Of a DNA stretch of 64,000 bases, positions 6,262 to 62,167 are shown one piece after another; the stretch's first letter is position 1, and the number at the start of each line of letters is the position of its first letter. This DNA is from an uncultured Candidatus Saccharibacteria bacterium. GTDB taxonomy: Bacteria > Patescibacteriota > Minisyncoccia > UBA6257 > HR35. The notes beneath the pieces were generated by a model. It did not search any database, was not told the DNA's origin, and was given only the letters and a program-made list of their open reading frames with translations. The stretch covers positions 2,015 to 66,014 of the forward strand of contig CAZZNB010000045.1 of assembly GCA_964655375.1 (NCBI GenBank), given 5' to 3'. Made by a program: the position numbers and the translations under genes.

Positions 6262-6439
6262 TTTCTAATTCTATTTCTTTTAATGCTTCGTAGTTAATCT
6301 CTTTTTTATTTGTTCTTAGATAAATTTTTTTATTTTTATTATCTATCTTAATCTCACCTTTTAGATCAGGGTAAATATTTTTTATTTTTGAAGCTAAATT
6401 TAAAAGTTTTGTTTTTTTTATATTTATTTTATCCATCAA
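6215..6439 (-). CDS. Hypothetical small protein downstream of dnaN
   Basis: 74-aa K/E-rich ORF in an operon-like position after dnaN. It overlaps the PBP 3' end. No recognizable motif. Confidence 0.3.
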   Translation of the reverse strand: MMDKINIKKTKLLNLASKIKNIYPDLKGEIKIDNKNKKIYLRTNKKEINYEALKEIELEIKKNFLDYKIEILNY

Positions 6440-7563
6440 ATAGGCATTAATATATAAATAAAATCTTCTTCTAATGGAGATTTTATTAATGTTGGTTTTA
6501 TTCCATAATCTGATGGTACATTAATTCCTATAAATATTTTTTCGCTATCTATATTTTTTATACCTTCTGTTAGAAAATCTATATTATAAGAAATTTCAAA
6601 TTCCTCTTCTTGATCTGTAGATTCTAAATTTATATTTACTTTATTTATATTTTCTCCTAATACTTCATTTCTAGTAATCAATTCCATAAATTCTTCCTTT
6701 GGATTAATCTTAACTTTTATTTCTTTTGATTGATCAACATAAACCTTATTTAATCGTAATGCCTTTAAAACTTCATCTCTATTTATATAAAATATTATGT
6801 TAAAATCTTGTGGAATTACTTGTTGATAGTCTGGGTAATCTACAGATAATGTTTTTGAAAGTAAAACTTGGTCTTCTAAATCAAAAGTGACCTGAGATGG
6901 TTCTATATAGATTTTTAATTTTAATGGTTTTTTCTTTATTTTTAGATATTCTGAAATTATTGTTTCAGGTATCAATAATTTTTCTTCTTTTTCTATATTT
7001 GTAATTATCAAATCTTTTTTAAATTTAATTTCAGAAAGTCTTATAGTATCTGTAGTTACTAGTCTTATCCAATTTTCTGTTATCCACATATAAACTCCTG
7101 CAAATTCAGGTTTTATTACTTCTGCTGTTTTTATATTTCCATAAATTTTTTCTAAATAATTTTCAAATAATTTGTTATCTATTTCTATATATTTTTCTTC
7201 TGAGTATTTTGGTATTAAAGGATAATCTTCTTCTGATATTCCTGGTAATGTAGAAAATGTTTTTTCTCCTCTTAAAATTAATGTATTTTCTTTATTTTCT
7301 ATATTAATTACGTCTTCATAAAAATTTTGTAAAACTTCATAAAATTGTTTAGCAGGTATCAAAAATTCTCCTTCTTCTTCAATTTTTGCTAATAAAGTAG
7401 CCTTATAAGAAATTTCTAAATCTGTAGAAAATATGGTTAATTTATCGTTTTTTGCTTCTATTTTAAAAAAATTTAGAATACTAAGATCAGTTTTTTTAGG
7501 ACAAATTCTATTAACAACTGTTATTTTATCTATTAGTGTATTTTTCAATATAGATATTTTCAT
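6436..7563 (-). CDS. dnaN: DNA polymerase III beta sliding clamp
   Basis: 375 aa, located immediately downstream of dnaA. The N-terminus MKISILKNTLIDKITVVNRI is typical of beta clamps. The three-domain length is correct. Confidence 0.8.
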   Translation of the reverse strand: MKISILKNTLIDKITVVNRICPKKTDLSILNFFKIEAKNDKLTIFSTDLEISYKATLLAKIEEEGEFLIPAKQFYEVLQNFYEDVINIENKENTLILRGEKTFSTLPGISEEDYPLIPKYSEEKYIEIDNKLFENYLEKIYGNIKTAEVIKPEFAGVYMWITENWIRLVTTDTIRLSEIKFKKDLIITNIEKEEKLLIPETIISEYLKIKKKPLKLKIYIEPSQVTFDLEDQVLLSKTLSVDYPDYQQVIPQDFNIIFYINRDEVLKALRLNKVYVDQSKEIKVKINPKEEFMELITRNEVLGENINKVNINLESTDQEEEFEISYNIDFLTEGIKNIDSEKIFIGINVPSDYGIKPTLIKSPLEEDFIYILMPI

Positions 7564-28026: not shown

Positions 28027-28030
28027 AATG

Positions 28031-28102
28031 TGCGGCTGGGAGGATTCGAACCTCCGACCTGGTGTTTATAAGACACCCGCTCTGCCACTGAGCTACAGCC
28101 GC
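28031..28102 (-). tRNA. tRNA-Ile with apparent anticodon UAU (decoding AUA)
   Basis: Cloverleaf: acceptor GCGGCTG/CAGCCGC, D-arm GCTC-AGTGGCA-GAGC, anticodon stem GGTGT/ACACC with loop CTTATAA, T-arm GGAGG-TTCGAAT-CCTCC. Confidence 0.7.
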
Positions 28103-47945: not shown

Positions 47946-48410
47946 ATGAAAAATAGAGTATTTCTTCAAAATCCGGGAATTTATTATCATTATCAAATAT
48001 TAGAAAGCTTTGAAGCTGGAATAGAGCTAAAAGGCTTTGAAGTCAAAGCCTTAAGAGAAGGGAAAGGAAGCTTAAAAGGAAGCTATGTTACTATAAAAGA
48101 TAATGAAGCTTATTTAGTAAATTTTAATATCCCTCCATACCAACCTAAAAATACACCAAAAGATTATGATGAAAATAGACCAAGAAAACTTTTATTAAAG
48201 AGAAAAGAAATAAATTATTTGATAGGAAAATTAAAAGAAAAGGGGTTAACATTAGTGCCAATCAAGGTTTATTCTAAAGGAAATCTTATTAAAATAGAAA
48301 TAGCTTTAGCAAAAGGTCTTAAAAAATATGAAAAAAGAGAAAAAATAAAAGAAAAAGAATTTAGAAGAGTAAAAGAAAGAGCAGAGAAAATAAAATATAG
48401 GGCTGGATAA
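47946..48410 (+). CDS. smpB: SsrA-binding protein SmpB
   Basis: 154 aa. GIELKGFEVKALREGKGSLKGSYV...RPRKLLLKRKEINYLIGK...GLTLVPIKVY...IEIALAKGLKKYEKRE matches the SmpB consensus. Confidence 0.9.
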   Translation: MKNRVFLQNPGIYYHYQILESFEAGIELKGFEVKALREGKGSLKGSYVTIKDNEAYLVNFNIPPYQPKNTPKDYDENRPRKLLLKRKEINYLIGKLKEKGLTLVPIKVYSKGNLIKIEIALAKGLKKYEKREKIKEKEFRRVKERAEKIKYRAG

Positions 48411-48442
48411 AAACCAGCCCCTTAATCCTAATAGTATATACT

Positions 48443-49351
48443 CTATAATTCTTTTAATCTAGATAAAATATGTTCTAATATTTCTTCGTGGGGCCCTGGT
48501 AAACTTATTCTAAACGGAGCTCCGCTTTTTAGTTCAAACATTTTCACTAAGTTAATTTCTTTTAATTTCGTTCCTATAATCGTAATTTCCTCATTGTTAT
48601 TTCCATATTTTTGTATGATTATCATGTCAAATCTTTTATATCCTAACATAAATAATCTTGTTATATCCACTTTTTTCTTTGGATCTAATTTTATATAACC
48701 AATTTTATATTTACCCCCAGCTATTAATTCTATATTTTCTGAAGCTTCTATTGTATTTCTTTCTATTTCTTCATATAATTTACCGTATTCCTCTAATAAC
48801 CTTCTCTCTTCACTATTATCTTCACTTTTATAACTTTTAACAAGATATCTAACTATTGTTCTCATTATGTTTTCTTTTAACCTTTCATCTTCACTTAAGA
48901 TTCCATATTTTAATGATCTATTTAAGAAAATAGATAAATCTGTTTCTTTATATTCTGTAGGTCTATCCGCAGCATTCGCTGCAGCGACCCACTCTTCTCT
49001 TACTATAAACCCATTATCTTTCATCAATTGGGGGCAGCTTGGGCTATCCCCAACTATAACTTTTTCTTCTCCTAGCCATTCTTGTAGATATATATATCCC
49101 TCATGATGGTCTATCCACAATCTTATTTTATCTTTATATCTTTCAATAAATTCTCTCGTCATATCTGGATTCCTATTATTTACTGCTATGTCGACAACAA
49201 AAATTTCCTCTATATTTGCAGGAATATTTATTTTATCTAACAAGAATGGCTGTGTAAAGATTATATTTCTTTCAGATATACCGAAGTTTATTGAAATTAT
49301 CGTTGCAGATATTACACCATCAATATCACCATGAGAAACCACAAACTTCAT
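48443..49351 (-). CDS. DHH-family phosphoesterase (NrnA-like), island gene
   Basis: DHH motif I VVSHGDIDG and motif III WIDHHEG. The true start is ATG at 49351, preceded by GGAGGTG 6 nt upstream. The track start at 49360 lies inside the SD. Confidence 0.7.
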   Translation of the reverse strand: MKFVVSHGDIDGVISATIISINFGISERNIIFTQPFLLDKINIPANIEEIFVVDIAVNNRNPDMTREFIERYKDKIRLWIDHHEGYIYLQEWLGEEKVIVGDSPSCPQLMKDNGFIVREEWVAAANAADRPTEYKETDLSIFLNRSLKYGILSEDERLKENIMRTIVRYLVKSYKSEDNSEERRLLEEYGKLYEEIERNTIEASENIELIAGGKYKIGYIKLDPKKKVDITRLFMLGYKRFDMIIIQKYGNNNEEITIIGTKLKEINLVKMFELKSGAPFRISLPGPHEEILEHILSRLKEL

Positions 49352-49479
49352 AAGTTTCACCTCCTTTTAGATTACTAATAAAATTTTAACATATTTTTAA
49401 AAACAAAATATTTTCAAAATTGTGTCAAATAAAAATGGCTGGGCAATTACCCCAGATTACCCAGCCAGAATTTACATTT

Positions 49480-50382
49480 TTATACTTTTTTATAGGTTTC
49501 TTTTATCTTAATAACCCTCTCTGTCTTAATTACTTCGAAAACTATATAGTATCTTTTTAATCTCTCTTCGTATCCTACATAATTTATTGATACTAAATTT
49601 TCGTTATATAAATTAGGTTCAATCTTCACCAAAAAATCTATAATTTCAGAATAATTTCTGAAACTAAAGTTATTTAGATTTCGCGAATATTCATATTTTG
49701 TACTACCTAACAAAACTCCTTTTAATCTTACTTTCCCTGTTTTTTTATACTCTACCAATCTTTCTAATGTTTGCTTGATATGAAATTCTACTCTAGCTTT
49801 AACTAACCTAGACTTCCCTATGATTTCATAAACTTTTCTGTTTTCATCTACAAAATATATTGCTTTATATTTACCTCTATTTGCAATTAATAAACAGGGA
49901 ATTTCACTATTTATTGAACTTATTTGAGATCTTGGGGGGAAGCTTAATATATGACTTACTAATTTTTGCTGATTCTCGTTCATCATTCTTATTTCCTCAT
50001 TCAACCTCTCAATGTTTATTTGCAATCTAATTTTTTCTTCGCTTAAAGATCTTATATTTTCTTCTAGGGATTTAACTTCCAAATCTCTACTTATAATATA
50101 TTGTTCAATTAAATATTCATCTTCGAATTCGTCCTTTATTCTAGCTACTGCTTCATTTATTATTTTTGCTAATTCTTCAGCAACTCTTTTATCTTCTGCT
50201 TTTACTATGTCAGGATGAATTACTGCTAATAAATAAGCTCTATGTAAATCTACAAGTCTCTTTAATAAGGCTTTATTTCTCTTCAATATTCCTATAAAGC
50301 TGGGGGTAAAGCCTAATATCTCATACGGGTTTTTACCACTTAATTTCTTTACTGTTTCAACAAGAACTATCTCCTTTTTCAT
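49480..50382 (-). CDS. J-domain (DnaJ-like) protein with coiled coil and unknown C-terminal domain, island gene
   Basis: J-domain NPYEILGF...LLKRLVDLHRAYLLAVIHPDIV with the HPD tripeptide. Start ATG at 50382 with GGAGGTG 6 nt upstream. Confidence 0.65.
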   Translation of the reverse strand: MKKEIVLVETVKKLSGKNPYEILGFTPSFIGILKRNKALLKRLVDLHRAYLLAVIHPDIVKAEDKRVAEELAKIINEAVARIKDEFEDEYLIEQYIISRDLEVKSLEENIRSLSEEKIRLQINIERLNEEIRMMNENQQKLVSHILSFPPRSQISSINSEIPCLLIANRGKYKAIYFVDENRKVYEIIGKSRLVKARVEFHIKQTLERLVEYKKTGKVRLKGVLLGSTKYEYSRNLNNFSFRNYSEIIDFLVKIEPNLYNENLVSINYVGYEERLKRYYIVFEVIKTERVIKIKETYKKV

Positions 50383-50494
50383 TTTAGTCACCTCCAAATT
50401 TTATTTTACAAATTTTTTAAAAAAAAATTAAAGCCCTAGCAAGGCTAGGGCCTATGTTTTTGTAGTTGATTTTCTTTTCATATATTTTCTATAC

Positions 50495-50971
50495 TTAACC
50501 TATTTGCTCTTCATAATCTAACCACATAAAAAATTCTTCTATATTAGCAAAATTTATTTCGAGATATCTTATAAATTTTAATATCTGTCTTTCGCTATCA
50601 AATCTATTAGTAATTATATAGTCTATTAATTTATAGAAGTTATATAAATCTCTATCGCATACATCCAGTATTCTTCTTACCGTATAAATTTGGCATTTTA
50701 AATATTCTGCTGCCTCTAGTATGCTATCTATTTCTTCGAAGGTATAACCATATTTTAATCTCCACTGAATTATCCAATAAATTGGTTTATTATAACGTTC
50801 CATCATATAAAGAACAGATTCCACATCTTCTCTTTTGAATTTACACTCTACCATTCTATCTATCATCCTTTTTGTAATTCTTAAATATGTACCATACCTC
50901 TGATTATATTCTTCTATTAACTTTTGATACCACTCTCTTCGTACCAGTGCTCTGCCTTTTTCTTCCCCCAC
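50495..50971 (-). CDS. Hypothetical protein, island gene (GTG start)
   Basis: 158 aa. GTG at 50971 is preceded by GGAGGTG at 7 nt. Followed by a hairpin terminator. Confidence 0.45.
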   Translation of the reverse strand: MGEEKGRALVRREWYQKLIEEYNQRYGTYLRITKRMIDRMVECKFKREDVESVLYMMERYNKPIYWIIQWRLKYGYTFEEIDSILEAAEYLKCQIYTVRRILDVCDRDLYNFYKLIDYIITNRFDSERQILKFIRYLEINFANIEEFFMWLDYEEQIG

Positions 50972-51059
50972 CTTTAGTCACCTCCTACTTAAATTTTAAA
51001 AATTTTTTAAAAAAAATTAAAGGCCGACAGAATCGGCCCTTTTCTTAAGAAAGATAAAT

Positions 51060-51467
51060 TTATAATCTCGATAAAATAAATCTTAAGAGTGCGTAAGAAT
51101 CTCTCATATAATTTACTATTCTTTTTAACTTTTCCCTTTCTTCTTGATTTAATATTTTCTTTTCAGATAATTTTTTATATTCGTCAGAATAAAGAGAATG
51201 TTCTAATAAAAATTTAATTCTTTGCCATATTATCTTTTTTTCGCTATATTTGTTTAACTTCCACTTTTCTAAAATACCACTTATTTTTAATTCGAACATA
51301 ACATTATCATATTTATCATACATCAATTCTATATTTATCTTTTCTTTACTTCTTAATTGCTCAAATTCAAACTTAATATCTTCTATTATATCTTTAATCA
51401 ATTTTTTTAGTCTTTCATTTATTTCACTTTCAATTTCTAACAACCTTTCTGTTTGTTCCAATATCAT
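51060..51467 (-). CDS. Hypothetical coiled-coil protein, island gene
   Basis: The real start is ATG at 51467 (MILEQTERLL), with GGAGGTG 6 nt upstream. The track ORF is over-extended. Followed by a terminator. Confidence 0.45.
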   Translation of the reverse strand: MILEQTERLLEIESEINERLKKLIKDIIEDIKFEFEQLRSKEKINIELMYDKYDNVMFELKISGILEKWKLNKYSEKKIIWQRIKFLLEHSLYSDEYKKLSEKKILNQEEREKLKRIVNYMRDSYALLRFILSRL

Positions 51468-51556
51468 TGTCTTCACCTCCTTATTTGTGCTAATTATATT
51501 ATAAAAGCATAAAAGCCAGGGCAAAAACCCTGGCCTTTTTTATTTTTTAGATATTC

Positions 51557-52177
51557 TCATAGCCTTTCCAGGTTCCCATCACTATATAATAATATTCCAT
51601 CATTTAAATAATATTTAGGCCCCCCATTTTTATTTGTACCCACTACTATATACACCTTAGAATTCTTCTCTAGACCATTAACTAACAATATACCTAAGGA
51701 TTTATACAACAAATCTTCAGGATTTTCAGGCTTTTTATCTTTAAATTCTATTAATGTATTCCATGCTAACTTAAATATATCTACCTGAGGTTCGTATAAA
51801 CAAAATAATATTTCTTTAGAAATATTTCTTGACTTAGCTGTGTATACTAATTCTACAATCTTTATCATCCATGCTAAAGTAACCTCTTTTAGCTTTTCTT
51901 TATATTTTTCTATTTCGCTTATAGATACTCTAATTTTCTCCGGTAATCCCGGAGGAAATATAAATACTATTTGATATCCTAATTCATGTACTCTATTGGG
52001 AGGCAATATGTTTCCTTGCTCATCGCAAGGCACCACCTCCCAATTATTAGGACCAATTATATATATTACCTTATCAAATATGATCTTCTTTCGTTCTTCT
52101 TTAGCAGGCTCCTCTGTTGGAGCCTGTTCTTCTGTTAATTTTTTGTATTCTCTAAAGAGATCCTCTAGTTGTTCCAT
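51557..52177 (-). CDS. Hypothetical protein, island gene
   Basis: The real start is ATG at 52177 (MEQLEDL), with GGAGGTG 7 nt upstream. 206 aa. Followed by a terminator. Confidence 0.45.
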   Translation of the reverse strand: MEQLEDLFREYKKLTEEQAPTEEPAKEERKKIIFDKVIYIIGPNNWEVVPCDEQGNILPPNRVHELGYQIVFIFPPGLPEKIRVSISEIEKYKEKLKEVTLAWMIKIVELVYTAKSRNISKEILFCLYEPQVDIFKLAWNTLIEFKDKKPENPEDLLYKSLGILLVNGLEKNSKVYIVVGTNKNGGPKYYLNDGILLYSDGNLERL

Positions 52178-52460
52178 AAAAACCACCTCCATCTAATTTT
52201 AGACTGCCAATTAAATTATAAAATAAGTTTATTTTGTCAAATAAAAATCTAATTCGCCCAAAATTTAAAATATAATCAAACATACTTTTTGTCAATTTAT
52301 ATAGCATTTGATTTTTATTTAAAAAATATTATTTAATACCTAAATAATTAAAATCTTTCTAATAAAATTGTTAATTCCTACCCCAATTATTTCTAGTAAA
52401 ACAAAAAGTACTGATTTAACTATTTAATTATTTATGTATCTTGGCTGATTTAATGTAGTA

Positions 52461-52488
52461 TTGACTTTTAAAAATTATTTAATATAAT
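52461..52488 (+). promoter_or_regulatory. Consensus sigma70-type promoter P1 (TTGACT-16-TATAAT)
   Basis: -35 at 52461-52466, -10 at 52483-52488, then SD GGAGGTG at 52495-52501 and ATG at 52509. Confidence 0.55.
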
Positions 52489-52508
52489 TAACTTGGAGGT
52501 GGTCTAAA

Positions 52509-52751
52509 ATGAGAAGAAGAATGATAGATACTATTATATTAACTATAATAACAATATCACCAATAGTAGTTATACTTATAATCACAAAAACAGATCCATT
52601 TTTGGAATATATAGCAAAAGTAAACCCAGAAATTTGGATGAATATAATGGCACCTATAGGAATATTGTTTGGTATGATACTTACTTTTGCATATATCACC
52701 TTATTGTTAATATATTCTGAGTATAGGCATAGAAATACGAATAGAAGATAG
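52509..52751 (+). CDS. Small 2-TM membrane protein, island gene
   Basis: 80 aa. Has its own promoter, a perfect SD and a terminator (hairpin gcccgcgataaaagcgggc at 52813-52831 plus a T-run). Confidence 0.5.
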   Translation: MRRRMIDTIILTIITISPIVVILIITKTDPFLEYIAKVNPEIWMNIMAPIGILFGMILTFAYITLLLIYSEYRHRNTNRR

Positions 52752-52812
52752 AAATCAATAAGACAAAATGAGAAATAAGCGGAATATATAAAAATTTTTA
52801 GAAAAAACATTA

Positions 52813-52850
52813 GCCCGCGATAAAAGCGGGCAATATTTTTTTATATTTTT
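52813..52850 (+). terminator. Rho-independent terminator
   Basis: GC hairpin gcccgcg-ataaaa-gcgggc followed by a T-rich tail. Confidence 0.6.
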
Positions 52851-52995
52851 TAATTTAAATTAATAAAAGAAATAAATATCTTTTCCAAACAAGCCAATCT
52901 TATTTACCGCATTCAATATTCCTATATTTTGATGATGAAAATGTTTATAGAATAGACTAAAAATAGCTAAAAGCTCTTTAATATTTTTTACCCTA

Positions 52996-53024
52996 TTGAC
53001 TTTTTTCAAAAAAATTATTATACT
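52996..53024 (+). promoter_or_regulatory. Consensus sigma70-type promoter P2 (TTGACT-17-TATACT)
   Basis: -35 at 52996-53001, -10 at 53019-53024, SD GGAGGTG at 53032-53038. Confidence 0.5.
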
Positions 53025-53044
53025 AATAACTGGAGGTGACTACA

Positions 53045-53305
53045 ATGAAAAAACACAAGATAATGTTAAATATAGCAATTAGTATAATAATGTTAAATAT
53101 ATTTCTGTTGGTATATGATACTTTCGTAAATACTAACTTTCTTCAATATATATACTATAAAGAAAATACATTAATACACACAAATATAGAAAGAACCTTG
53201 AAAATAATAAGTATACTGATGATAATAAATAGCCTTGGACTGTTTTTAATAATTTATATTCACATACGAGATAGAATAATAAAAATCATTAATAAAATCT
53301 TTTAA
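53045..53305 (+). CDS. Small 2-TM membrane protein, island gene
   Basis: ATG at 53045 (MKKHKIML), 6 nt after GGAGGTG. 86 aa. Followed by a hairpin terminator (ccccgcag...ctgcgggg, 53327-53355). Confidence 0.5.
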   Translation: MKKHKIMLNIAISIIMLNIFLLVYDTFVNTNFLQYIYYKENTLIHTNIERTLKIISILMIINSLGLFLIIYIHIRDRIIKIINKIF

Positions 53306-53432
53306 AAAATAAAACCAATACTAAAAGCCCCGCAGAAAATAAATAACTGCGGGGCAAAATTTTATTACAAAAATAGTATAATTGAAACAAAATATAGTCA
53401 AAAATATACGAAAAATATATATTTTTTACATC

Positions 53433-53460
53433 TTGACAAATAAAAATAAGTGATTATAAT
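53433..53460 (+). promoter_or_regulatory. Perfect consensus promoter P3 (TTGACA-16-TATAAT) driving the GC-rich cassette
   Basis: -35 at 53433-53438, -10 at 53455-53460. Confidence 0.55.
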
Positions 53461-53575
53461 TATTATTGGATACACTTAAAGTAGTATAAGACGTAAACTC
53501 CCCCGGGAGGGGGTTACAGGGAGCTGAGGGACTCCCTGTAGCTCGCCCGGGGAATAGAAAAGGAGGTGAAAGAAG

Positions 53576-53959
53576 ATGGATGAGCTGAAATTGAAACCTC
53601 ACAAACAACCCCAACCTCAACAACAACAGGAAGAGCAACAACCCCAACCTCAACCCCAACCCCCTACCAAGAAGGTCATTTTGCTTTTTGGTAGGGGGAC
53701 CGTCCAGTACGATCAGAGTAAGTACACTTTGATCGTACTGACGGGGATCCAACCCCACCCCCTGCACCAACCGGAGGAGTGGCTTGAGTTTGTCAAGTCG
53801 ATCCTCCGGGCCTTCTCCATCGCGAGGGTGGAAGAAGTGGTTATCGCGGTGGAGAGGGCACAGGTCCCCACGTTGATCTCTCTCACGCGGAACAATAAAA
53901 AGTTCCGCGTGGCACCCGCCGTCGTTAAGGACGGAAAGGTGTTCTACCCCGTAGTTTAA
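53576..53959 (+). CDS. GC-rich hypothetical protein with PQ-repeat N-terminus
   Basis: 127 aa: MDELKLKPHKQPQPQQQQEEQQPQPQPQPPTKK.... Perfect SD aaaGGAGGTGaaagaagATG. Codon usage is completely unlike the rest of the window. Confidence 0.45.
   Translation: MDELKLKPHKQPQPQQQQEEQQPQPQPQPPTKKVILLFGRGTVQYDQSKYTLIVLTGIQPHPLHQPEEWLEFVKSILRAFSIARVEEVVIAVERAQVPTLISLTRNNKKFRVAPAVVKDGKVFYPVV
53705..53740 (+). repeat. 11-bp perfect inverted repeat (cagtacgatca ... tgatcgtactg) with 14-bp spacer inside the GC-rich ORF
   Basis: Read directly. It is the reason both strands encode YDQS.YTLIVL. Confidence 0.6.
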
Positions 53960-54086
53960 GTCCTAACTTCCCAACCCTAACCACCCCACACCGCCCCCCG
54001 GCCCGACCCTCAGGGTTTCCCGTACAGGGGGGCTATTTAATTTTATGGAGAAATTTTTAATAGAAAAATTAAAAATTTTTAAGGAC

Positions 54087-54114
54087 TTGACAAATTAAAA
54101 TAATTTGTTATAAA
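54087..54114 (+). promoter_or_regulatory. Consensus promoter P4 (TTGACA-16-TATAAA)
   Basis: -35 at 54087-54092, -10 at 54109-54114, SD GGAGGTG at 54134-54140. Confidence 0.5.
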
Positions 54115-54146
54115 AATTATTAGCAAACTTGAAGGAGGTGCCTGAA

Positions 54147-54383
54147 ATGGAAAAATGTTTGGTCAAGAGAGAAAGAAAGAAGAAAAATAATAGAAGAGAA
54201 ATAAGAATTTTTTGTAGAAATTGTGAGGTAGAAATTTTTAGATACATAAAATATAAAGATACAGCAATTTACGATATAGAAGATTTGAGAATAGTAGGTG
54301 TTGATTTAGAAGAAGATAAAAAAATTTTAGAAATAGAATGTTGGAAATGTAAAAAAATATATAAAATTCAAGTAGAACCATAA
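54147..54383 (+). CDS. Small zinc-ribbon protein (CxxC...CxxC), island gene
   Basis: ATG at 54147 (MEKCLVKRERKKK...), 6 nt after the SD. Cys pairs CRNCEVE and CWKCKK. Followed by the terminator acgcaccc-tttt-gggtgcgt at 54413-54447. Confidence 0.5.
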   Translation: MEKCLVKRERKKKNNRREIRIFCRNCEVEIFRYIKYKDTAIYDIEDLRIVGVDLEEDKKILEIECWKCKKIYKIQVEP

Positions 54384-54412
54384 TAAATAAAATTTTTTCA
54401 AAAATAAACACA

Positions 54413-54447
54413 CACGCACCCTTTTGGGTGCGTTATTCATTTTTTGA
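54413..54447 (+). terminator. Rho-independent terminator
   Basis: Hairpin cacgcaccc/gggtgcgtg followed by tattcattttttg. Confidence 0.6.
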
Positions 54448-54850
54448 AATACATTGTCTAGTCTTATGACATATAAAAATAATAATTATTATATTTATTT
54501 TTAGACAAGGAAAAATAGCTTAAATACTAAATTGTTTTACAAAATTTAAAATTTTTGCGAAAATCTGTTTAGCTAAATTTTACCTATAGAAAACTATATC
54601 TCTCTTTGAAAAACTTAGAGCTTTAGAATTGATAAATCTTATAGATTAATTTTTAAATAATAAATAAGAAAAATTTTTAATTATTCATAGATATTATGAT
54701 TGTACATATAAAAAGATTCGTTTATTAATTTAAAAGATACTATGAAAATTAAGAAATAAATTTCTTCCTAATTAATACAAATTTTGAAATTTTAATTGCC
54801 TTAAAAATAATTACATTTAATAAAAAACTCAAATATTTTAATTTGATTTT

Positions 54851-54872
54851 CTATATTTCTATAGAAATATAG
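54851..54872. repeat. 22-bp perfect palindrome ctatatttctatagaaatatag in a 750-bp gene-free AT-rich stretch
   Basis: The sequence equals its own reverse complement. A related motif, cctatagaaaactatatc, lies at about 54578. Confidence 0.6.
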
Positions 54873-55148
54873 AAATTGATATTTTTAAATTTTTTACAAA
54901 TGAAGATGCTTTATCTATTTGGAGCTTTTATTTCAATAGATTAAAAAATGTAAATTAAAAAACTACCGTTGTTTATGCGTATATCTGTTGATTATTTTGA
55001 TTAAAATAAAAGTCTTTTTTATTTGCTTTTTAAAACCTTTAGAATACTTTATAAAATTATCGAAGGAATATTTATTTTTAAGAAAATTTGAAATTATTTT
55101 TTATCATTTAAAATTTAATCAGAAAGCTAAAAGGAGGTGAAAAAGTTG

Positions 55149-55478
55149 ATGGAGGTGATGAACGAGCTATTATTAGAAGAAATTAAATTAATGTATAAAA
55201 ATTCTAAAGATGCATTAATAAAGCTTCATGATTTATTATGTAATGTTCGTTTAAGAGTTAAAGAAGTTGAGTTAAATGTAAGATTTTATGAAGAAAAGAA
55301 AACTTTTGTTATTATGCCAAAATTATCAAGCTTTGAAGAAAAAATTGATTATTTAATTAAAAACTATAATAAGCTATTTAGTAATGAAAATTTAGAAAAA
55401 GAAGATTTGGAATTTTACTTAGAATTATTAAATGAAGTTATAGAAACTTTAGAAAGGACCATAAAAAAACTCAGCTAA
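55149..55478 (+). CDS. Hypothetical coiled-coil protein, island gene
   Basis: ATG at 55149, 9 nt after GGAGGTG (55133-55139). 109 aa. Followed by the hairpin terminator cggagctgg-tatcat-ccagctccg at 55488-55511. Confidence 0.45.
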   Translation: MEVMNELLLEEIKLMYKNSKDALIKLHDLLCNVRLRVKEVELNVRFYEEKKTFVIMPKLSSFEEKIDYLIKNYNKLFSNENLEKEDLEFYLELLNEVIETLERTIKKLS

Positions 55479-55678
55479 AAAGTAAATCGGAGCTGGTATC
55501 ATCCAGCTCCGTTAATTATTTTCTAATTGTAAGATAGAGGAAAGAAAAAGAGAAGAAGAAAGAATAAAAGAAGAACTTTCATTATGGTATGATTATTAAA
55601 ATTTAGATTAAAGATAGAATAAGGGGAGGCATTTAACCTCCCCTATTATAATTTATCGCTTAATTTTCCGATATGATG

Positions 55679-55825
55679 TTACGGAGGAATATCTGGTCTA
55701 ATTGTATGCGTTCTCTGTACCGGGCAAACTCTTCTAGGGTCCCACTCAGGATGTTTATCAGGATCTATTTTGGGTGTTGGCTTAGGCTTTACTGGTGTTT
55801 TCGGCCTTGTCTTTTCTCTTTGCAT
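55679..55825 (-). CDS. Small Lys/Pro-rich basic protein (48 aa), absent from the ORF track
   Basis: Manual translation gives MQREKTRPKTPVKPKPTPKIDPDKHPEWDPRRVCPVQRTHTIRPDIPP. ATG at 55825 overlaps the TGA of the upstream gene (tgATG). GGAGGTG lies 7 nt upstream. Followed by a terminator at 55621-55645. The plus-strand ORF 55673-55888 in the track is probably its antisense artefact. Confidence 0.45.
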   Translation of the reverse strand: MQREKTRPKTPVKPKPTPKIDPDKHPEWDPRRVCPVQRTHTIRPDIPP

Positions 55826-56214
55826 CACACTTCACCTCCTCCTTCAAAGAGTCTTTTGAGCCTTTTCATCTCATTTTCCTCAGTATAATTCTTATCTTTT
55901 ATAGTTAATACTTTTTTAGCTTCAAAAATCAACTCTGCTCCTACCATATTTCTATTAATATCTACATCTTCAAAGCTTGAAACTGTTAATATTGCTAACA
56001 ATAATTCTTCTCTAATCGCAATTGTTACCATTTCTTTATCTAAGGAGAAAATATTTTCTTTTTCAGAAATATTAGGTATTTCTTTTAATATTTCTTCTAT
56101 AAGCTCATACCCTTCCTCTTTCTCTATAAGTCCGTTTTGTATAGCCAACAATATTCTTGTCCATAAATATCTTACAGATGCAAAGCTAAGACTAAGCTTA
56201 ACATTTTCAAACAT
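55825..56214 (-). CDS. Hypothetical protein, island operon gene 2
   Basis: ATG at 56214 (MFENVKLS), preceded by GGGAGGTG at 6 nt. The track start at 56223 is a GTG inside the SD. Confidence 0.45.
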   Translation of the reverse strand: MFENVKLSLSFASVRYLWTRILLAIQNGLIEKEEGYELIEEILKEIPNISEKENIFSLDKEMVTIAIREELLLAILTVSSFEDVDINRNMVGAELIFEAKKVLTIKDKNYTEENEMKRLKRLFEGGGEV

Positions 56215-57070
56215 CACCCTCACCTCCCTTAAGGGTTTCCATTTTTTCTATAAAGTTCATTATATGATGTTTTGGCATTGGATTTATATTTCCATTCAGT
56301 AATACTGGAATTTCTAATCCTCCTAGCCTTTCTACTACACTTTCTCCTAATGGCAATCTATTGCATTGATTTAAATCGATTAAAACTTTTTCTCCTGTTT
56401 TTATTCCATAATCATATAACAAAAATCTTCTCCACCAAGCTATAAATATTTTCATTTCATCAGATAGTTTTGAAGGAGTATAATTTACATGTGGTTTATA
56501 TAAACCTTGATTTCTATGATATTCTTCTATTGACTTGATTAAAGATCGAGCAAATTCTATGCTTGGTTTTTCTACTATATAAGGATAGCCAATAACATCT
56601 ATTAATTCTCTGCCATATCTATAACTTAAAGTTAATAAATTTATAAATTCCTCTGCGACAGGTCTTAACAAGATATCTGCTAATGGCTTTTGTAAATAAT
56701 ATAAATCTTTAATATCATTGAAATATTCAACTATTTCTTTTATACCCCAATATCCTTTTCTTAATATATCTACAAATTCTACTTCTTTTATTTTAAAATT
56801 TGGCTGAATATAACTTTTAATCCAAAAATGAGTACTTTCTGTATCTCTATTCCTATAAAGAGAAGCTATTATTACTCTCTCATATCTTGAATTTCCTAAT
56901 ACATATATGTTTTCATAGAAATTATATATTTCAGGCACTTCCTCTATTTTTTTACCAAATTCTGTTATATACTTTCCATAATTTTCATAATATAGAGATA
57001 GACTATAGTACAATCTTTGCTCTTCAGCTATACTCAACTTATCACAGAAATGAAATAACATAATTTTCAC
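56207..57070 (-). CDS. Hypothetical protein, island operon gene 1
   Basis: 287 aa. ATG at 57070 with GGAGGTG 7 nt upstream (cataattttcacctcc on the plus strand). Confidence 0.45.
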   Translation of the reverse strand: MKIMLFHFCDKLSIAEEQRLYYSLSLYYENYGKYITEFGKKIEEVPEIYNFYENIYVLGNSRYERVIIASLYRNRDTESTHFWIKSYIQPNFKIKEVEFVDILRKGYWGIKEIVEYFNDIKDLYYLQKPLADILLRPVAEEFINLLTLSYRYGRELIDVIGYPYIVEKPSIEFARSLIKSIEEYHRNQGLYKPHVNYTPSKLSDEMKIFIAWWRRFLLYDYGIKTGEKVLIDLNQCNRLPLGESVVERLGGLEIPVLLNGNINPMPKHHIMNFIEKMETLKGGEGDV

Positions 57071-57150
57071 CTCCTTGAAGGTTTCTATTTATATTATAAT
57101 ATAAAGATCAGATTGTGAATTAATTTATTAAGAATTTTTAAATTATAGCA

Positions 57151-57178
57151 TTGACTTAAAATGTATACATTTTATAAT
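57151..57178 (+). promoter_or_regulatory. Consensus promoter (TTGACT-16-TATAAT) about 300 nt upstream of the next gene
   Basis: -35 at 57151-57156, -10 at 57173-57178. No SD-led ORF lies immediately downstream. Confidence 0.4.
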
Positions 57179-57483
57179 AAAAATACCGAACGCCTTGCAG
57201 AGAGATAAATATTGAAAACTACACTAAGTAGTACAAATGCCAGAACAATATATTAAAAAATATACATTATTTTTATAGTGGCTATAAGAACAACCAAATA
57301 GATCTAAGAAAATATACCTATTAAAGACCTAGATATAGACAAGAAGGATTTGGTAATAAAAATAATTTCTTATGCTTTATATGGAAAATAGCATATAATT
57401 TCAAAATCGGAATAAGATAACTTAATACTTCTGTACTTTTTATAGGCTCCATTTTTTATAATAATTTTAAATATAATTTAAAT

Positions 57484-58524
57484 ATGGAAGGATTATATCC
57501 CTCCCCTTTTCCAGAACAACAACCAGAATTGCCGAAAACTAATAGTGGGTATTATGAAACTATTGAAAGATATTTAAAAGGGGTGCTTAATAAATTAAAA
57601 AGCGAATCTTCAGGGCATAGAGGCAAATTTCTTTTGATTATGGGTGAAATTAAACCTTCAAGTGCTATTGATATTGAGATAAAAACTCAAGATGATTTCG
57701 AAAAATATATTGGTGCTTTTTCAAAAGCAGAAGAAGGTTCAGGTTTAGAAAAATATTTAGAATCTCTAAGAAGAGAATGGAGCCAACAAACATTATATGC
57801 TCAAAAACGATATAAACACACTCAAAGAACAATAGAATCTCACTTTTTAGGACAAATTAAAGGAAAATCAGTTGAAAAAATTATCGCTAACTCTTTAATT
57901 AGTCTTAACCCTAAACTTCAAAATATAAAATTTATCGGAGTTCCATTAATAGACGATTTAATAGGCGCTGGAGATATTTATATGACTATTCAATTAGAAA
58001 ATGAATTAATTATTTTTGCTATAGATATAACTTCTTCTATAGAAAAAAGTAGTGTCTTATATAAATTATCTAAAGAAATGGGGAATTATCCTTTCTCTTT
58101 ATCTTCTATCAAAAATAATTTAAATATATACAGAATAGAATTAGCATTAAATGACAAAGAAATTCAATTAAATTTAGATGAAATTAAAGAAATAGTAACC
58201 AGGGGAACAAAATTATTGCAAGAAGAATTAAGAAAATATAACATCAGTCCTGAGGGTATAATACAAAATATTCAAAGATATGAAAATGATCCTAGATTCA
58301 GTCAAGAAATAGACTTAGAAACATTTATTAACTTCTTTGTTGAAAATACAATACTTCGAAATTATAAAGATTTCTTGACAGGTTTATATTGCCTTTATTC
58401 AATAAAATTTATATTAGATTATTCATTTAGAAAATTATCTAAAGATGATAAAGAAATAATAAAAAAATGTTCAGAAGTTATTGAGGAACAATTATCTTTG
58501 CCTCAAAGTTCTACCTTTCATTAG
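57484..58524 (+). CDS. Hypothetical protein
   Basis: 346 aa, no SD (host-like), no motif recognized. Confidence 0.35.
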   Translation: MEGLYPSPFPEQQPELPKTNSGYYETIERYLKGVLNKLKSESSGHRGKFLLIMGEIKPSSAIDIEIKTQDDFEKYIGAFSKAEEGSGLEKYLESLRREWSQQTLYAQKRYKHTQRTIESHFLGQIKGKSVEKIIANSLISLNPKLQNIKFIGVPLIDDLIGAGDIYMTIQLENELIIFAIDITSSIEKSSVLYKLSKEMGNYPFSLSSIKNNLNIYRIELALNDKEIQLNLDEIKEIVTRGTKLLQEELRKYNISPEGIIQNIQRYENDPRFSQEIDLETFINFFVENTILRNYKDFLTGLYCLYSIKFILDYSFRKLSKDDKEIIKKCSEVIEEQLSLPQSSTFH

Positions 58525-58533
58525 TTTTTTAAT

Positions 58534-58562
58534 TTGCAGTTAGTGATTATTTTTAATATAAT
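58534..58562 (+). promoter_or_regulatory. tmRNA promoter (TTGCAG-17-TATAAT)
   Basis: The -10 ends 11 nt before the inferred tmRNA 5' end. Confidence 0.5.
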
Positions 58563-58573
58563 TTTATTTAGAA

Positions 58574-58920
58574 GGGGGTGATAAATGGAATTCGAGGAGG
58601 AAAAAAGGTAAAAGGGGCTGGTGGCTTAGCCCGCCTTAAGGGCTAAAAATAAATGCCAACCAATCCTTTGCCTATGCTTTAAGCTAAGCATAGGGCTTTA
58701 CAGGAATTCAGTGCTAGGCTGGTCCTGTAGGGTGACGGAATCCTAGCTAGAAGTTAAAAGGTTAGAGAGGAGCCTTTTAACTTCGAAATTAAATATTCCT
58801 CTCAGGCCTTAGTCGTTTTGCCGGTTTTTGAGACTAAGGTTCAAATTTAAAAACCGGCTATACCAGTAGAACCTTTTACCTTTTTTTCTTCGACAGGGGT
58901 TCGATTCCCCTCACCTCCAC
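58574..58920 (+). ncRNA. ssrA: tmRNA (SsrA)
   Basis: The 5' end GGGGGUGAUAAAUGGAAUUCGAGGAGG parallels E. coli GGGGCUGAUUCUGGAUUCGACGGG. The 3' end GGGGUUCGAUUCCCCUCACCUCCAC is a tRNA-like T-arm plus acceptor that pairs with the 5' GGGGGUG. The internal reading frame GCC AAC CAA UCC UUU GCC UAU GCU UUA AGC UAA gives a tentative tag ANQSFAYALS. Confidence 0.75.
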
Positions 58921-59014
58921 AATTATTGATTTAAAATCTTAAAAATAAAACTTAAAAATAAAAGACATTAACTTATTTAAGATATTTTGAGATAAATGAG
59001 AAAATTATTTAATT

Positions 59015-62045: not shown

Positions 62046-62167
62046 AAGTCCCTTGCAGCACCTACTCTCGCGCCCGAAGGCACTACCATCGGCACTGGGC
62101 CGTTTCACCTGCCTGTTCGGAATGGGAAGGGGTGGTTCCAACCCAGTTATACAGCCACAAGGGACTT
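62046..62167 (-). rRNA. rrf: 5S ribosomal RNA
   Basis: The reverse complement contains CCCAUUCCGAACAGGCAGGUGAAAC, CCAGUGCCGAUGGUAGUG and GCGAGAGUAGG, with terminal helix cccuug/caaggg. Confidence 0.85.

Follow-up and report, generated by a model that had tools for sequence, protein, structure and literature searches.

The locus considered here lies in a 64-kb stretch of DNA (hereafter the window, analysed over its full 64,000 nucleotides) from a MAG of the Minisyncoccia/Paceibacteria (CPR) with a GC content of 27%. The window carries smpB (47946–48410, plus strand; recognized by a Pfam SmpB match on the called gene) and the tmRNA gene ssrA (58574–58922, plus strand; Rfam RF00023, 119.5 bits), and these form the left and right borders of an ORFan block of about 10.1 kb (48411–58573). 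In the nearest other species, six in number (L022, L024, L026, L029, L048 and L087), smpB is followed directly by the tmRNA gene, with a gap of 30–100 nt, and no block proteins were found in them. L004, L008, L017 and L020 carry the block in syntenic form, and L021 carries part of it; the synteny of the block is stable across a clade of about 95% RecA identity. To judge from these comparisons, 48411–58573 is a lineage-specific insertion between smpB and ssrA. The proteins of the block diverge far more rapidly than SmpB or RecA do, being 49–75% identical where SmpB and RecA are 94–96% identical (94% for SmpB of the window and of L004). Fourteen ORFs of the block were searched against Pfam, and ten of these also against PHROGs, PADLOC and NCBIfam, with no significant match; by this measure the genes are unrelated to known families.

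Within the block, minus-strand genes lie on either side of an array of small plus-strand genes. To the left are four single-gene units (48399–51538; 305, 305, 158 and 154 aa), each with a GC hairpin and T-run (48399–48421, 49436–49467, 50431–50453 and 51019–51041 in a hairpin scan), and orf211 (51557–52192), terminated by the hairpin 51511–51538. The original prediction that each of these genes ends in a GC hairpin was thereby confirmed. Two intergenic modules on the same strand (50383–50435 and 50973–51025; repeat family D3), each comprising a terminator tail, an A/T tract and an SD, are paralogous as proposed, with 85% identity over 53 nt. To the right of the array, a three-gene minus-strand unit (55622–57070; 287, 132 and 49 aa) ends at the hairpin 55622–55644.

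The array itself consists, as predicted, of five plus-strand ORFs of 80, 86, 127, 78 and 109 aa, all five preceded by the SD GGAGGTG 6–9 nt upstream of the start codon, and the four near-consensus sigma70 promoters that had been claimed are found where they were placed (10–12 of 12 matches). Cassette 1 (52461–52841) has the promoter TTGACT-16-TATAAT (52461–52488; 11/12), an SD at 52495–52501, a hydrophobic 80-aa ORF1 (52509–52751; 52–60% identical to its orthologue in relatives) and a terminator hairpin at 52813–52831 with a T-run. Cassette 2 (52996–53365) has TTGACT-17-TATACT (52996–53024; 10/12), an SD at 53032–53038 and a hydrophobic 86-aa ORF2 (53045–53305; orthologue about 48% identical). 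Cassette 3 (53433–54045), described below, begins with TTGACA-16-TATAAT (53433–53460), the sole 12/12 match in the window. Cassette 4 (54087–54445) has TTGACA-16-TATAAA (54087–54114; 11/12), 76% identical to the cassette-3 promoter over 62 nt (family D2), then an SD at 54134–54140, a 78-aa ORF4 with a CxxC...CxxC zinc ribbon (54147–54383) and a terminator at 54414–54433 with a T-run. Cassette 5 (55061–55520) has a conserved upstream region in which only a weak candidate promoter, TTGAAA/TAAAAT near 55088, could be read from the sequence; it continues with an SD at 55133–55139, a helical ORF5 of about 109 aa (55146 or 55149 to 55478; orthologue about 60% identical) and a terminator at 55488–55511, again with a T-run. 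Every cassette has its own GC-hairpin terminator, as claimed, and four of these (at 52813, 53993, 54414 and 55488, the second composite) were picked up by the hairpin scan. The scanner did not list the hairpin of cassette 2, at 53328–53354, because of its 11-nt loop (on an 8-bp stem) and weak T tract.

Scoring of promoters and terminators bears out the claim that this arrangement differs from the rest of the window. Loose promoter matches (at least 9/12) are not enriched (73 found, 71 ± 8 expected), and sites with at least 11/12 number six in the 64 kb (4.7 ± 1.9 expected). Three of those six are promoters of the array, each with an SD and a start codon downstream. Terminator-like sites between 46 and 58 kb number 23 (4.2 ± 2.2 expected), and all ten terminator hairpin loci that satisfy a strict definition in the 64-kb window fall within 48399–55644. 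The predicted punctuation is conserved in L004, which has 11 terminators (2.2 ± 1.3 expected) and 29 promoter-like sites (12.3 ± 3.8 expected). No terminator excess was found in L024, whose genome lacks the block. Within the 64 kb, then, only the block has its genes punctuated singly or in very short units with consensus sigma70-type promoters, perfect SDs and intrinsic GC-hairpin terminators; these genes have the look of autonomous promoter-SD-ORF-terminator modules.

When presence and absence of cassettes were compared, as had been suggested, relatives were found to differ by swaps, gains and losses. In all relatives examined, the ORF2 orthologue precedes ORF1, the reverse of their order in the window. 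Two additional cassettes found in relatives, one for a Zn-ribbon protein and one for an ncRNA, are absent from the window; in several of them, a conserved GC-rich ncRNA cassette, with CCUCC in a hairpin loop, stands next to cassette 3. Conversely, a spacer of about 600 nt between cassettes 4 and 5 (54446–55060; 11–24% GC, no ORF) occurs in this genome only: the gap in relatives is about 140 nt, and the spacer resembles no relative locus examined. Between related genomes, then, cassettes have changed their order and have come and gone.

Cassette 3 is the most unusual part of the block, and its peculiarity was overlooked in the original prediction. Its ORF3 (53576–53959, plus strand; 127 aa, GC3 0.66), with the SD (53562–53568) 7 nt upstream of the ATG, has 16 homologues. 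Differences by codon position are 0.28/0.15/0.43, every indel keeps the frame and the substitutions are conservative, a pattern that marks ORF3 as a real protein-coding gene. In its product, a P/Q-rich tail would precede a small, Rossmann-like alpha/beta domain, modelled confidently by AF2 (core pLDDT >90). What sets the gene apart is composition. Cassette 3 is a GC island of 618 nt, and its predicted transcript (53469–54045, plus strand; 577 nt, 54% GC) is the largest such island in the window. In every relative the transcript is likewise a sharply bounded island of 52–59% GC, its edges coinciding with promoter and terminator, and the flanking promoter region (53384–53468), with its conserved A/T-rich upstream DNA, is nearly invariant in 13 relatives. 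GC3 of ORF3 in relatives is 0.53–0.69, as against 0.14–0.23 in neighbouring genes. L019 has a distant homologue whose GC3 of 0.36 is close to ordinary, which indicates that the structure is not intrinsic to the protein family.

The transcript is also strongly folded. Dinucleotide shuffles put its MFE of −241.7 kcal/mol at z = −8.0, and the CDS alone has z = −9.1 against synonymous-codon shuffles; in all 12 homologues that value lies between −4.1 and −11.1, whereas eight neighbouring genes gave −1.8 to +1.2. Over the whole transcript, 93.7% of cells in the alignment are paired, and 36 pairs show double changes (22.4 ± 2.4 in shuffles, 9–14 in slid controls). Several covarying hairpins lie inside the CDS, and many helices there are lineage-specific rather than universally conserved. 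From transcription start to terminator, the transcript is under selection for secondary structure, kept GC-rich and folded well beyond the needs of protein or codons: a protein gene written in a style normally reserved for structural RNAs. The transcript begins with a leader that forms a 5' hairpin (53501–53552, plus strand) with a 7-bp outer stem, a GGAG-containing bulge, a 12-bp inner stem and a loop holding an invariant GGGA. Here 96.8% of cells are paired, 10 of 19 pairs show compensatory changes and 55 cells carry double changes (20.5 ± 2.9 when shuffled, at most 16 when slid). The bases of bulge and loop do not vary, although the stem covaries freely, and the G-U pairs place the structure on the sense strand.

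The 3'UTR (53960–54045, plus strand) comprises a C-rich, G-poor tract (53960–53992) and the composite terminator, in which 53993–53999 pairs with 54027–54033 and a T-run extends to 54045. Relatives have one to three CCTCC (anti-SD) motifs in their 3'UTRs. The enrichment is modest (21 observed, 13.6 expected) in sequences that are related and not independent. RNAalifold pairs the SD with CACCTCC of the 3'UTR in most of 13 sequences, with 10–13 standard pairs at each of 7 positions, and the predicted probability that the SD is unpaired, from 37 to 70 C, is 0.00–0.06 in relatives and 0.22–0.32 in the window. In most relatives the duplex of SD and 3'UTR outdoes its shuffled controls; in the window copy, its energy is no better than theirs. 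The anti-SD idea is thus weakest in the window copy, which has only CTTCC and CCACCCC in place of CCTCC, and whose SD is partly paired.

Taken together, these observations are best accounted for, we believe with somewhat more confidence than doubt, by an island of autonomous cassettes, one of which makes a thermostable, translationally gated mRNA for a small alpha/beta protein. Each cassette would be transcribed on its own, as a monocistronic unit, so that a module could be moved or lost with no polar effect. Made from the region's strongest promoter, the ORF3 transcript would be a long-lived mRNA whose translation is gated in cis: its SD would be closed by pairing with C-rich sequence, the CCUCC repeats of the 3'UTR in relatives and weaker partners in the window copy. 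The leader hairpin, with its freely varying stem and its invariant bulge and loop bases, may be where a protein or some other factor binds, perhaps the ORF3 protein itself.

The original prediction had seen in the array the marks of phage morons or of defence loci. That description stands insofar as the genes are modular, lineage-specific, shuffled and fast-evolving; it is only partly supported, since no homology to phage, defence or integrase genes was found. If the block were a prophage remnant or a defence or anti-defence island, with the cassettes as strict morons expressed independently of the mobile element, one could understand why promoter and terminator are provided gene by gene, why cassettes come and go and change order, why the proteins are fast-evolving ORFans and why DNA absent from sister species sits at smpB/ssrA, a classical hotspot for islands. 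We consider this improbable. Besides the blank database searches described above, neither the block DNA (48400–56000) nor the ORF3 protein matched the INPHARED phage collection, the ORF3 family found no match in IMG/VR, and domain searches of the block ORFs found no integrase, capsid or terminase. The block resembles morons of lambdoid prophages in its single small ORFs framed by a strong promoter and an intrinsic terminator, variable between relatives; unlike them, it has no recognizable phage around it, has the composition of its host (27% GC, ORF3 excepted) and is stably inherited in the clade. As extra DNA at the tmRNA locus it resembles ssrA/smpB genomic islands, but its place is after smpB, on the 5' side of ssrA instead of at the 3' end of that gene, and a reading of both junctions showed no direct repeat that looks like an att site. 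Another alternative concerns cassette 3 only: recent foreign DNA from a GC-rich donor, or GC-biased gene conversion, would produce a sharply atypical composition with no function at the RNA level, and the chimeric L014 assembly, which apparently joins co-existing strain variants, could be cited in its favour. This we disfavour strongly. The island is kept in every relative, even where protein identity falls to about 36% (L020); its borders are those of promoter and terminator, and the flanking promoter is AT-rich and invariant; and donor composition can explain neither the excess of folding over same-codon shuffles nor the compensatory changes with their G-U pairs. No more credible is the idea of a spurious 127-aa ORF in an island that is really a large non-coding RNA. 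Long ORFs do arise by chance in GC-rich sequence (an antisense ORF of 114 aa is present too), and ncRNAs are the usual meaning of GC islands in AT-rich genomes (the GC-IGR approach of PMC6429828), but the coding pattern, the well-placed perfect SD and the confident fold of ORF3 speak against it, as does the L019 homologue, which aligns at the protein level despite its ordinary composition.

A coding transcript might still have a second function: it could scaffold an RNP with its own product, soak up an RNA-binding factor as a sponge or decoy, or act as a regulatory RNA. Its GC content falls within the range of the genome's structural RNAs (44–66% for tmRNA, 5S and tRNAs), its fold statistics are like theirs, with the large deviations from synonymous shuffles, invariant unpaired bases sit beside covarying stems, and the adjoining ncRNA cassette of several relatives displays CCUCC in its loop. 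This possibility merits some weight but seems unlikely: the transcript matches no Rfam family, no other target or partner presents itself, a covariance model of the leader finds one copy per genome fragment, and the many helices that differ between lineages are more readily explained by a general requirement for stability than by one particular tertiary fold. A different objection concerns the gate. C-rich, G-poor, unstructured tracts are the established signature of rut sites, and those of ORF3 (one in the 3'UTR, one near the 5' end of the CDS where P and Q are encoded) are nearly free of G and predicted to be unstructured. Rather than partners of the SD, they could be sites where Rho terminates transcription when translation is uncoupled from it, which would also cover the window copy with its missing CCTCC. 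This is a doubtful alternative, as an intrinsic terminator already follows the 3'UTR, and the P/Q tract is also accounted for by the protein sequence.

A gated ORF3 mRNA would have precedents in the icaR mRNA of Staphylococcus aureus, with its 5'UTR-3'UTR pairing (PMC3868564), and in the hbs mRNA of Bacillus subtilis, a very stable monocistronic mRNA with a 5'/3'-UTR interaction that encodes a small abundant protein (PMC5737220). Like these, ORF3 has a predicted monocistronic mRNA, a structured leader, a strong SD and, in the 3'UTR, a C-rich motif whose complementarity to the SD is predicted to close the ribosome binding site. Unlike them, it is recoded for structure and GC content throughout its CDS as well, and its putative anti-SD is repeated in relatives and degenerate in the window. 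The mRNAs of hok-type type I toxins are long-lived and inactive through fold-back inhibition by 5'-3' pairing. The ORF3 mRNA is similarly compact, highly folded and presumably stable, its 3' end predicted to lock the translation start; however, its product is predicted to be a soluble 127-aa alpha/beta protein rather than a small hydrophobic toxin, and no antisense RNA gene is evident. Earlier screens for ncRNAs as GC islands were made in AT-rich hyperthermophiles. Cassette 3 stands out in the window as tRNAs, 5S rRNA and tmRNA do, yet it is a coding gene and not an intergenic ncRNA of the kind that such islands mark (PMC6429828).

The host, a tiny bacterium, is itself probably a thermophile from hot springs. 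In a genome of 27% GC, its tRNAs reach 58–66% GC and its 5S rRNA 60%, from which thermophily may be inferred, and the names of several related MAGs (KatS3mg094/096 and Bacterium HR35) presumably derive from hot-spring or geothermal projects.

All five small plus-strand genes of the array (ORF1 to ORF5, of 80, 86, 127, 78, and 109 codons, within about 52461-55520) were found where the original prediction placed them, along with four strong promoter matches and the GGAGGTG Shine-Dalgarno (SD) sequences. The fifth gene has only a weak promoter candidate. Hairpins likewise lie at the positions predicted for terminators, although the loop of the one after ORF2 (53328-53354) is 11 nt long and its T-run is poor. 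Two intergenic regions described as paralogous modules are indeed 85% identical across 53 nt. Loose promoter matches occur in the window at chance level (73 versus 71 ± 8 expected). Sites matching at least 11 of 12 positions number only six in 64 kb, and three of these belong to cassettes 1, 3, and 4, each with GGAGG and then a start codon downstream. Terminators were defined strictly, by a perfect stem of at least 6 bp containing at least 5 G-C pairs and followed by a T tail, and when the entire window was scored in this way, all ten loci fell between 48399 and 55644. Because three of the six top promoter matches and all strict terminators are found there, the punctuation of this region is unlike that of the remaining 56 kb; the array is real and non-random. 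Cassettes 3 and 4 have promoters that are themselves paralogous (76% across 62 nt).

The array is part of a block of ORFan genes (48411-58573) that separates smpB (47946-48410) from the tmRNA gene, ssrA (58574-58922). SmpB was used as a query to collect the same locus from other species. In six of them (L022, L026, L024, L029, L048, and L087, with SmpB 83-64% identical), the tmRNA gene starts 30-100 nt past smpB and none of the block proteins is encoded nearby. In one of the six, L024, terminators are not in excess (2 versus 4.1 expected). The block is present, its order unchanged, in metagenome contigs L004, L008, L017, and L020, and in L021 the first block gene adjoins smpB. Since the two genes are neighbours in these six species and 10.1 kb apart in the window, the block is a lineage-specific insertion at the smpB-ssrA junction, although, strictly, it may instead have been lost in several sister lineages.

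Block proteins diverge much faster than SmpB or RecA: where these two are 94-96% identical between genomes, the proteins of the block are 49-75% identical. Individual cassettes vary in presence among collinear relatives: L004 has one additional zinc-ribbon cassette and several relatives have an additional noncoding RNA (ncRNA) cassette, both missing from the window. A homologue of ORF2 lies upstream of ORF1 in all relatives examined, an order reversed in the window, and an AT-rich spacer of about 600 nt is unique to the window. The organization by which morons are recognized, a single ORF with its own predicted promoter and rho-independent terminator, was found here and is kept in L004.

The arrangement had been likened to phage morons and to defence loci. 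Its modular, independently punctuated, and shuffled character is supported, but the labels "phage moron" and "defence locus" are not. Pfam gave nothing significant for the 14 block ORFs scanned, and no phage-type domain was seen in block ORFs. For the 10 of these ORFs that were also scanned against PHROGs, PADLOC, and NCBIfam, there was no significant match, the sole PADLOC matches being below threshold and both to the zinc-ribbon protein ORF4 (E = 5e-4 and 2e-3; 16-18 bits). Among 50,697 phage records there was no match to the block DNA (48400-56000) or to the ORF3 protein, whose family has no relative in IMG/VR. Word-index protein searches with ORF4 and ORF5 returned near-identical sequences only. 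Like phage morons, the cassettes are independent promoter-ORF-terminator units, present or absent among collinear relatives; morons, however, by definition lie inside a phage or prophage between conserved phage genes, and no recognizable phage surrounds the block. Like genomic islands at the ssrA locus, the block, which lies 5' of ssrA, is DNA missing at the same place in related genomes. It differs from integrase-mediated islands in that no integrase domain was detected in its ORFs, no flanking direct repeat was visible when the two junctions were read by eye, and its composition is not atypical (25-29% GC, as in the rest of the window, with the exception of the ORF3 unit). We consider it improbable that the block came from a phage or a defence locus. 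By eye, a 305-aa protein (48443-49360, minus strand) has DHH-phosphoesterase-like motifs (HGDIDG ... DHH) and a second 305-aa protein (49480-50397, minus strand) has an N-terminal J-domain-like motif, KNPYEILG; Pfam at E ≤ 0.1 detected neither.

The exceptional ORF3 unit (cassette 3, 53433-54045) coincides with by far the largest GC island of the window, 618 nt at 51% GC, the others being tRNAs, the tmRNA gene, and 5S. The island is kept in every relative, at 52-59% GC amid 27-30% GC, and its borders follow the transcription unit, starting a few bases past a near-invariant perfect promoter and ending at the terminator. GC at third codon positions (GC3) is 0.53-0.69 in ORF3 and 0.14-0.23 in neighbouring genes. 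Plain horizontal transfer or gene conversion, considered as the sole cause of the island, was rejected as extremely improbable. The Rfam release-15 library includes OLE, ROOL, GOLLD, HEARO, group I and II introns, and riboswitches. At the gathering score over the whole window it gave nothing for the island, and at E up to 10 it gave no meaningful match within 52300-55700. GC islands have been used to discover ncRNAs (PMC6429828), and the ORF3 unit is an island of that kind, matching no Rfam family.

It is nonetheless a gene. The notion that ORF3 is spurious was rejected and retains next to no probability: 16 homologues align with in-frame indels only, differences per codon position are 0.28, 0.15, and 0.43, the AlphaFold model has a beta-beta-alpha-beta-alpha-beta-beta-beta core with pLDDT above 90, and a distant homologue of ordinary composition is found in a genome of 33% GC. 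The contigs come from ENA ERZ27289263, ERZ27249349, and ERZ27246785 and from JGI 3300034696, 3300045867, 3300045874, 3300053640, and 3300058672. Several of them are short, and in L014 variants are chained together, most likely as a chimera. An ORF3 profile gave only four matches in 1.8 billion representative proteins, so the family is very narrow; a profile search of the genome contigs of GTDB species representatives gave no relative. A second GC-rich patch, a 49-aa ORF (55679-55828, minus strand), was rejected as a case like ORF3: with a GC3 of 0.32 and no excess structure (z = +1.0), its GC is explained by amino-acid composition. This Lys/Pro-rich protein is the best conserved of the block (79-84% identity).

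The ORF3 transcript (53469-54045) is predicted to fold far more stably than dinucleotide shuffles (z = -8.0, in standard deviations). The coding sequence alone (53576-53959) is 4.1-11.1 standard deviations more stable than shuffles preserving protein and codon set in 12 of 12 homologues; relative to synonymous shuffles, the window copy gave z = -9.1 and eight neighbouring genes gave -1.8 to +1.2. RNAalifold predicted 108 pairs on a 13-sequence alignment of the transcript, with 93.7% of cells paired versus 42-56% when partners were slid. Compensatory double changes occur at 36 pairs, versus 22.4 ± 2.4 after shuffling and 9-14 after sliding. Relatedness among the homologues means that shuffled controls overstate independence; the slid controls, which are safer, also favour structure. 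Many of the helices are lineage-specific. The ORF3 promoter and about 60 nt upstream of it (53384-53468) are nearly invariant in 13 loci, and among these genomes the ORF3 coding sequence differs at about 40% of nucleotides. A weaker structural effect was seen in orf211 (211 aa, 51557-52192, minus strand), which lies beside the divergent promoter region: z = -3.3 versus synonymous shuffles, with a 10-bp GC hairpin (52103-52128) within its 5' part.

The clearest structured element of the ORF3 transcript is a leader hairpin (53501-53552), whose inner stem has three or four wholly different sequences with pairing kept throughout (96.8% of cells paired; 55 cells with double changes versus 20.5 ± 2.9). 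Neither the bulge (GGAG) nor the loop (GGGA) varies. Because of its G-U pairs, the structure is assigned to the sense strand, in RNA; no antisense promoter or terminator unit that might produce a cis-antisense RNA was seen at ORF3. The idea that the hairpin is a repeated regulatory element was rejected: covariance model R1 found one copy per genome fragment, its other matches being to the SD flank only, and the hairpin is therefore a gene-specific leader. The most distant ORF3 homologue (L019:6001-6369; 28% identity, GC3 0.36) lies in a different gene context. It has no leader hairpin, and a long C/A-rich, G-poor 3' tract precedes its terminator.

The 3'UTR of ORF3 is C-rich and nearly G-free. 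In relatives it contains CCTCC one to three times, usually within (C)ACCTCC, which is complementary to the SD. In the RNAalifold prediction the SD pairs with the 3'UTR sequence CACCTCC, 10-13 of the 13 sequences being standard-paired at each of seven positions, and the duplex beats shuffles in most relatives. The window 3'UTR has no CCTCC, and its duplex is ordinary (-9.3 versus -9.9 ± 1.7 kcal/mol in shuffles). In an SD-sequestering RNA thermometer, the SD would be paired in the cold and freed at the temperature of growth. Relatives are predicted to keep 94-100% of the SD paired at temperatures as high as 70°C, its unpaired probability rising only from 0.00-0.03 at 37°C to 0.02-0.14 at 80°C; the SD of the window copy is predicted to be 22-32% unpaired at 37-70°C, rising from 0.22 at 37°C to 0.45 at 80°C. 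As far as the predicted folds can tell, the pairing has degenerated in the window copy.

The anti-SD motif recurs in the ncRNA cassette of relatives (L004:5452-5760; also in L002, L003/L007, L006, L008, L010, L011/L012, and L013), which lies directly upstream of the ORF3 unit. The cassette consists of a consensus promoter, a terminator of its own, and a GC-rich ncRNA of roughly 190 nt. In this ncRNA a 10-bp stem closes a multi-branched core, and CCUCC lies within a hairpin loop, AGCCUCCA. The ncRNA had no Rfam match, and at 85-98% identity between genomes whose ORF3 proteins are about 50-60% identical, it varies too little for covariation analysis.

The window, a bacterial chromosome fragment of 27.4% GC, also carries recA, an isolated 5S rRNA gene, and five tRNA genes. 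Its sequence is present as well within a 66.7-kb ENA metagenome contig, and its relatives bear the labels Minisyncoccia, Candidatus Paceibacter, or Patescibacteria. The stable RNAs are much above the genome in GC (tRNAs 58-66%, 5S rRNA 60%), and several related MAGs have record titles (KatS3mg094/096, Bacterium HR35) that we take to be names of hot-spring or geothermal projects; from these two observations we infer a thermophilic host. The CPR/Minisyncoccia are uncultivated and, to our knowledge, their gene regulation is essentially unknown.

That the cassettes have this anatomy, that the block was inserted and its cassettes shuffled, that ORF3 is coding, and that its whole transcript is selected for RNA structure and GC content may be regarded as shown, with high probability. 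What is said of transcription, stability, and translation is prediction throughout. Every cassette would be an insulated transcription unit, and the modules would therefore be portable and could be rearranged without polar effects. The ORF3 mRNA, made from what is predicted to be the strongest promoter of the region, would be folded and persistent at a high temperature at which the host's other mRNAs (roughly 17-30% GC) would be scarcely folded. Its ribosome binding site would be gated by pairing in cis to C-rich sequence and open during transcription, or perhaps after 3' trimming or the action of a helicase. The leader hairpin, with conserved unpaired bases and a free stem, may be recognized by a factor, which could be the ORF3 protein. 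Stability and gating together form a tentative mechanism, drawn from modelled folds and given somewhat less than even odds. Such gating would be similar to that of mRNAs whose 5'UTR and 3'UTR pair, icaR (PMC3868564) and hbs (PMC5737220), and of hok-type mRNAs. In the icaR type the pairing represses translation, triggers decay by RNase III, or both; in ORF3 the pairing is a thermodynamic prediction. The ORF3 unit goes further than the UTR-pairing mRNAs, in that its entire coding sequence is recoded for structure.

There are other readings of the ORF3 messenger. The C-rich tracts might be Rho-utilisation sites rather than partners of the SD, which is rather unlikely; slightly less remote is the idea that the transcript is a dual-function RNA, active both as message and otherwise. 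It is similarly doubtful, but conceivable, that the unit represents an undescribed class of structural-RNA-like messenger in thermophilic CPR bacteria, whose fold is itself functional. Such a messenger might be stored or long-lived, locked until freed by a signal, or might form an RNP with its own product. The features behind this reading are a length of about 580 nt, a GC3 of 0.53-0.69 where the genome has 27% GC, covarying helices through UTRs and coding sequence, and 5'-to-3' closure; in relatives, moreover, the unit adjoins the conserved GC-rich ncRNA with its anti-SD hairpin loop. Type I toxin mRNAs of the hok kind have a small hydrophobic toxin ORF, whereas ORF3 encodes a 127-aa soluble alpha/beta protein.

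The sigma70-type promoters of the block, which are near consensus, and its intrinsic terminators form a clean set that could anchor models of transcript boundaries in this phylum. As a datable insertion between smpB and ssrA, with single-gene modules shuffled between strains, it may also show how reduced genomes acquire new genes. ORF3 is a natural case of a gene that is translated and in which selection for RNA structure prevails at synonymous sites (z = -4 to -11 versus synonymous shuffles, 12 of 12 homologues). If the fold controls the lifetime or translation of the mRNA at high temperature, this would be among the strongest known bacterial cases of structural selection on a whole mRNA, and screens for ncRNAs based on GC islands in AT-rich thermophiles could then pick up structured coding RNAs.

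Some smaller features of these loci deserve mention. In one all-GC contig (L014:1-1585, JGI 3300058672), three or four different versions of the ORF3 transcript are joined head to tail and the AT-rich promoters are missing; most likely, strain variants present side by side, or reads derived from transcripts, were assembled into a chimera. Many other contigs holding the ORF3 unit are merely 0.6-1.6 kb, which suggests that assemblies break at the GC/AT boundary. The spacer unique to the window (54446-55060, between cassettes 4 and 5) is 11-24% GC, corresponds to about 140 nt in relatives, and has a 44-nt inverted repeat around 54840-54883; it resembles no fetched locus and contains neither an ORF nor, by tblastx, the remnant of one. 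At 28030-28102 is the gene for a tRNA-Ile whose anticodon is UAU, and the 5S rRNA gene is at 62050-62162, with no match to 23S rRNA in the window, including the 1.8 kb from the 5S gene to its end. Finally, in species without the block it is the stretch from the tmRNA gene to recA that varies: in L024 (10831-16574) it encodes two very large surface-type proteins (660 and 1254 aa), and in L029 the gap is similar in size. L017 has a patatin-like gene (5813-6610) at this position, and in the window recA comes directly after the tmRNA gene.
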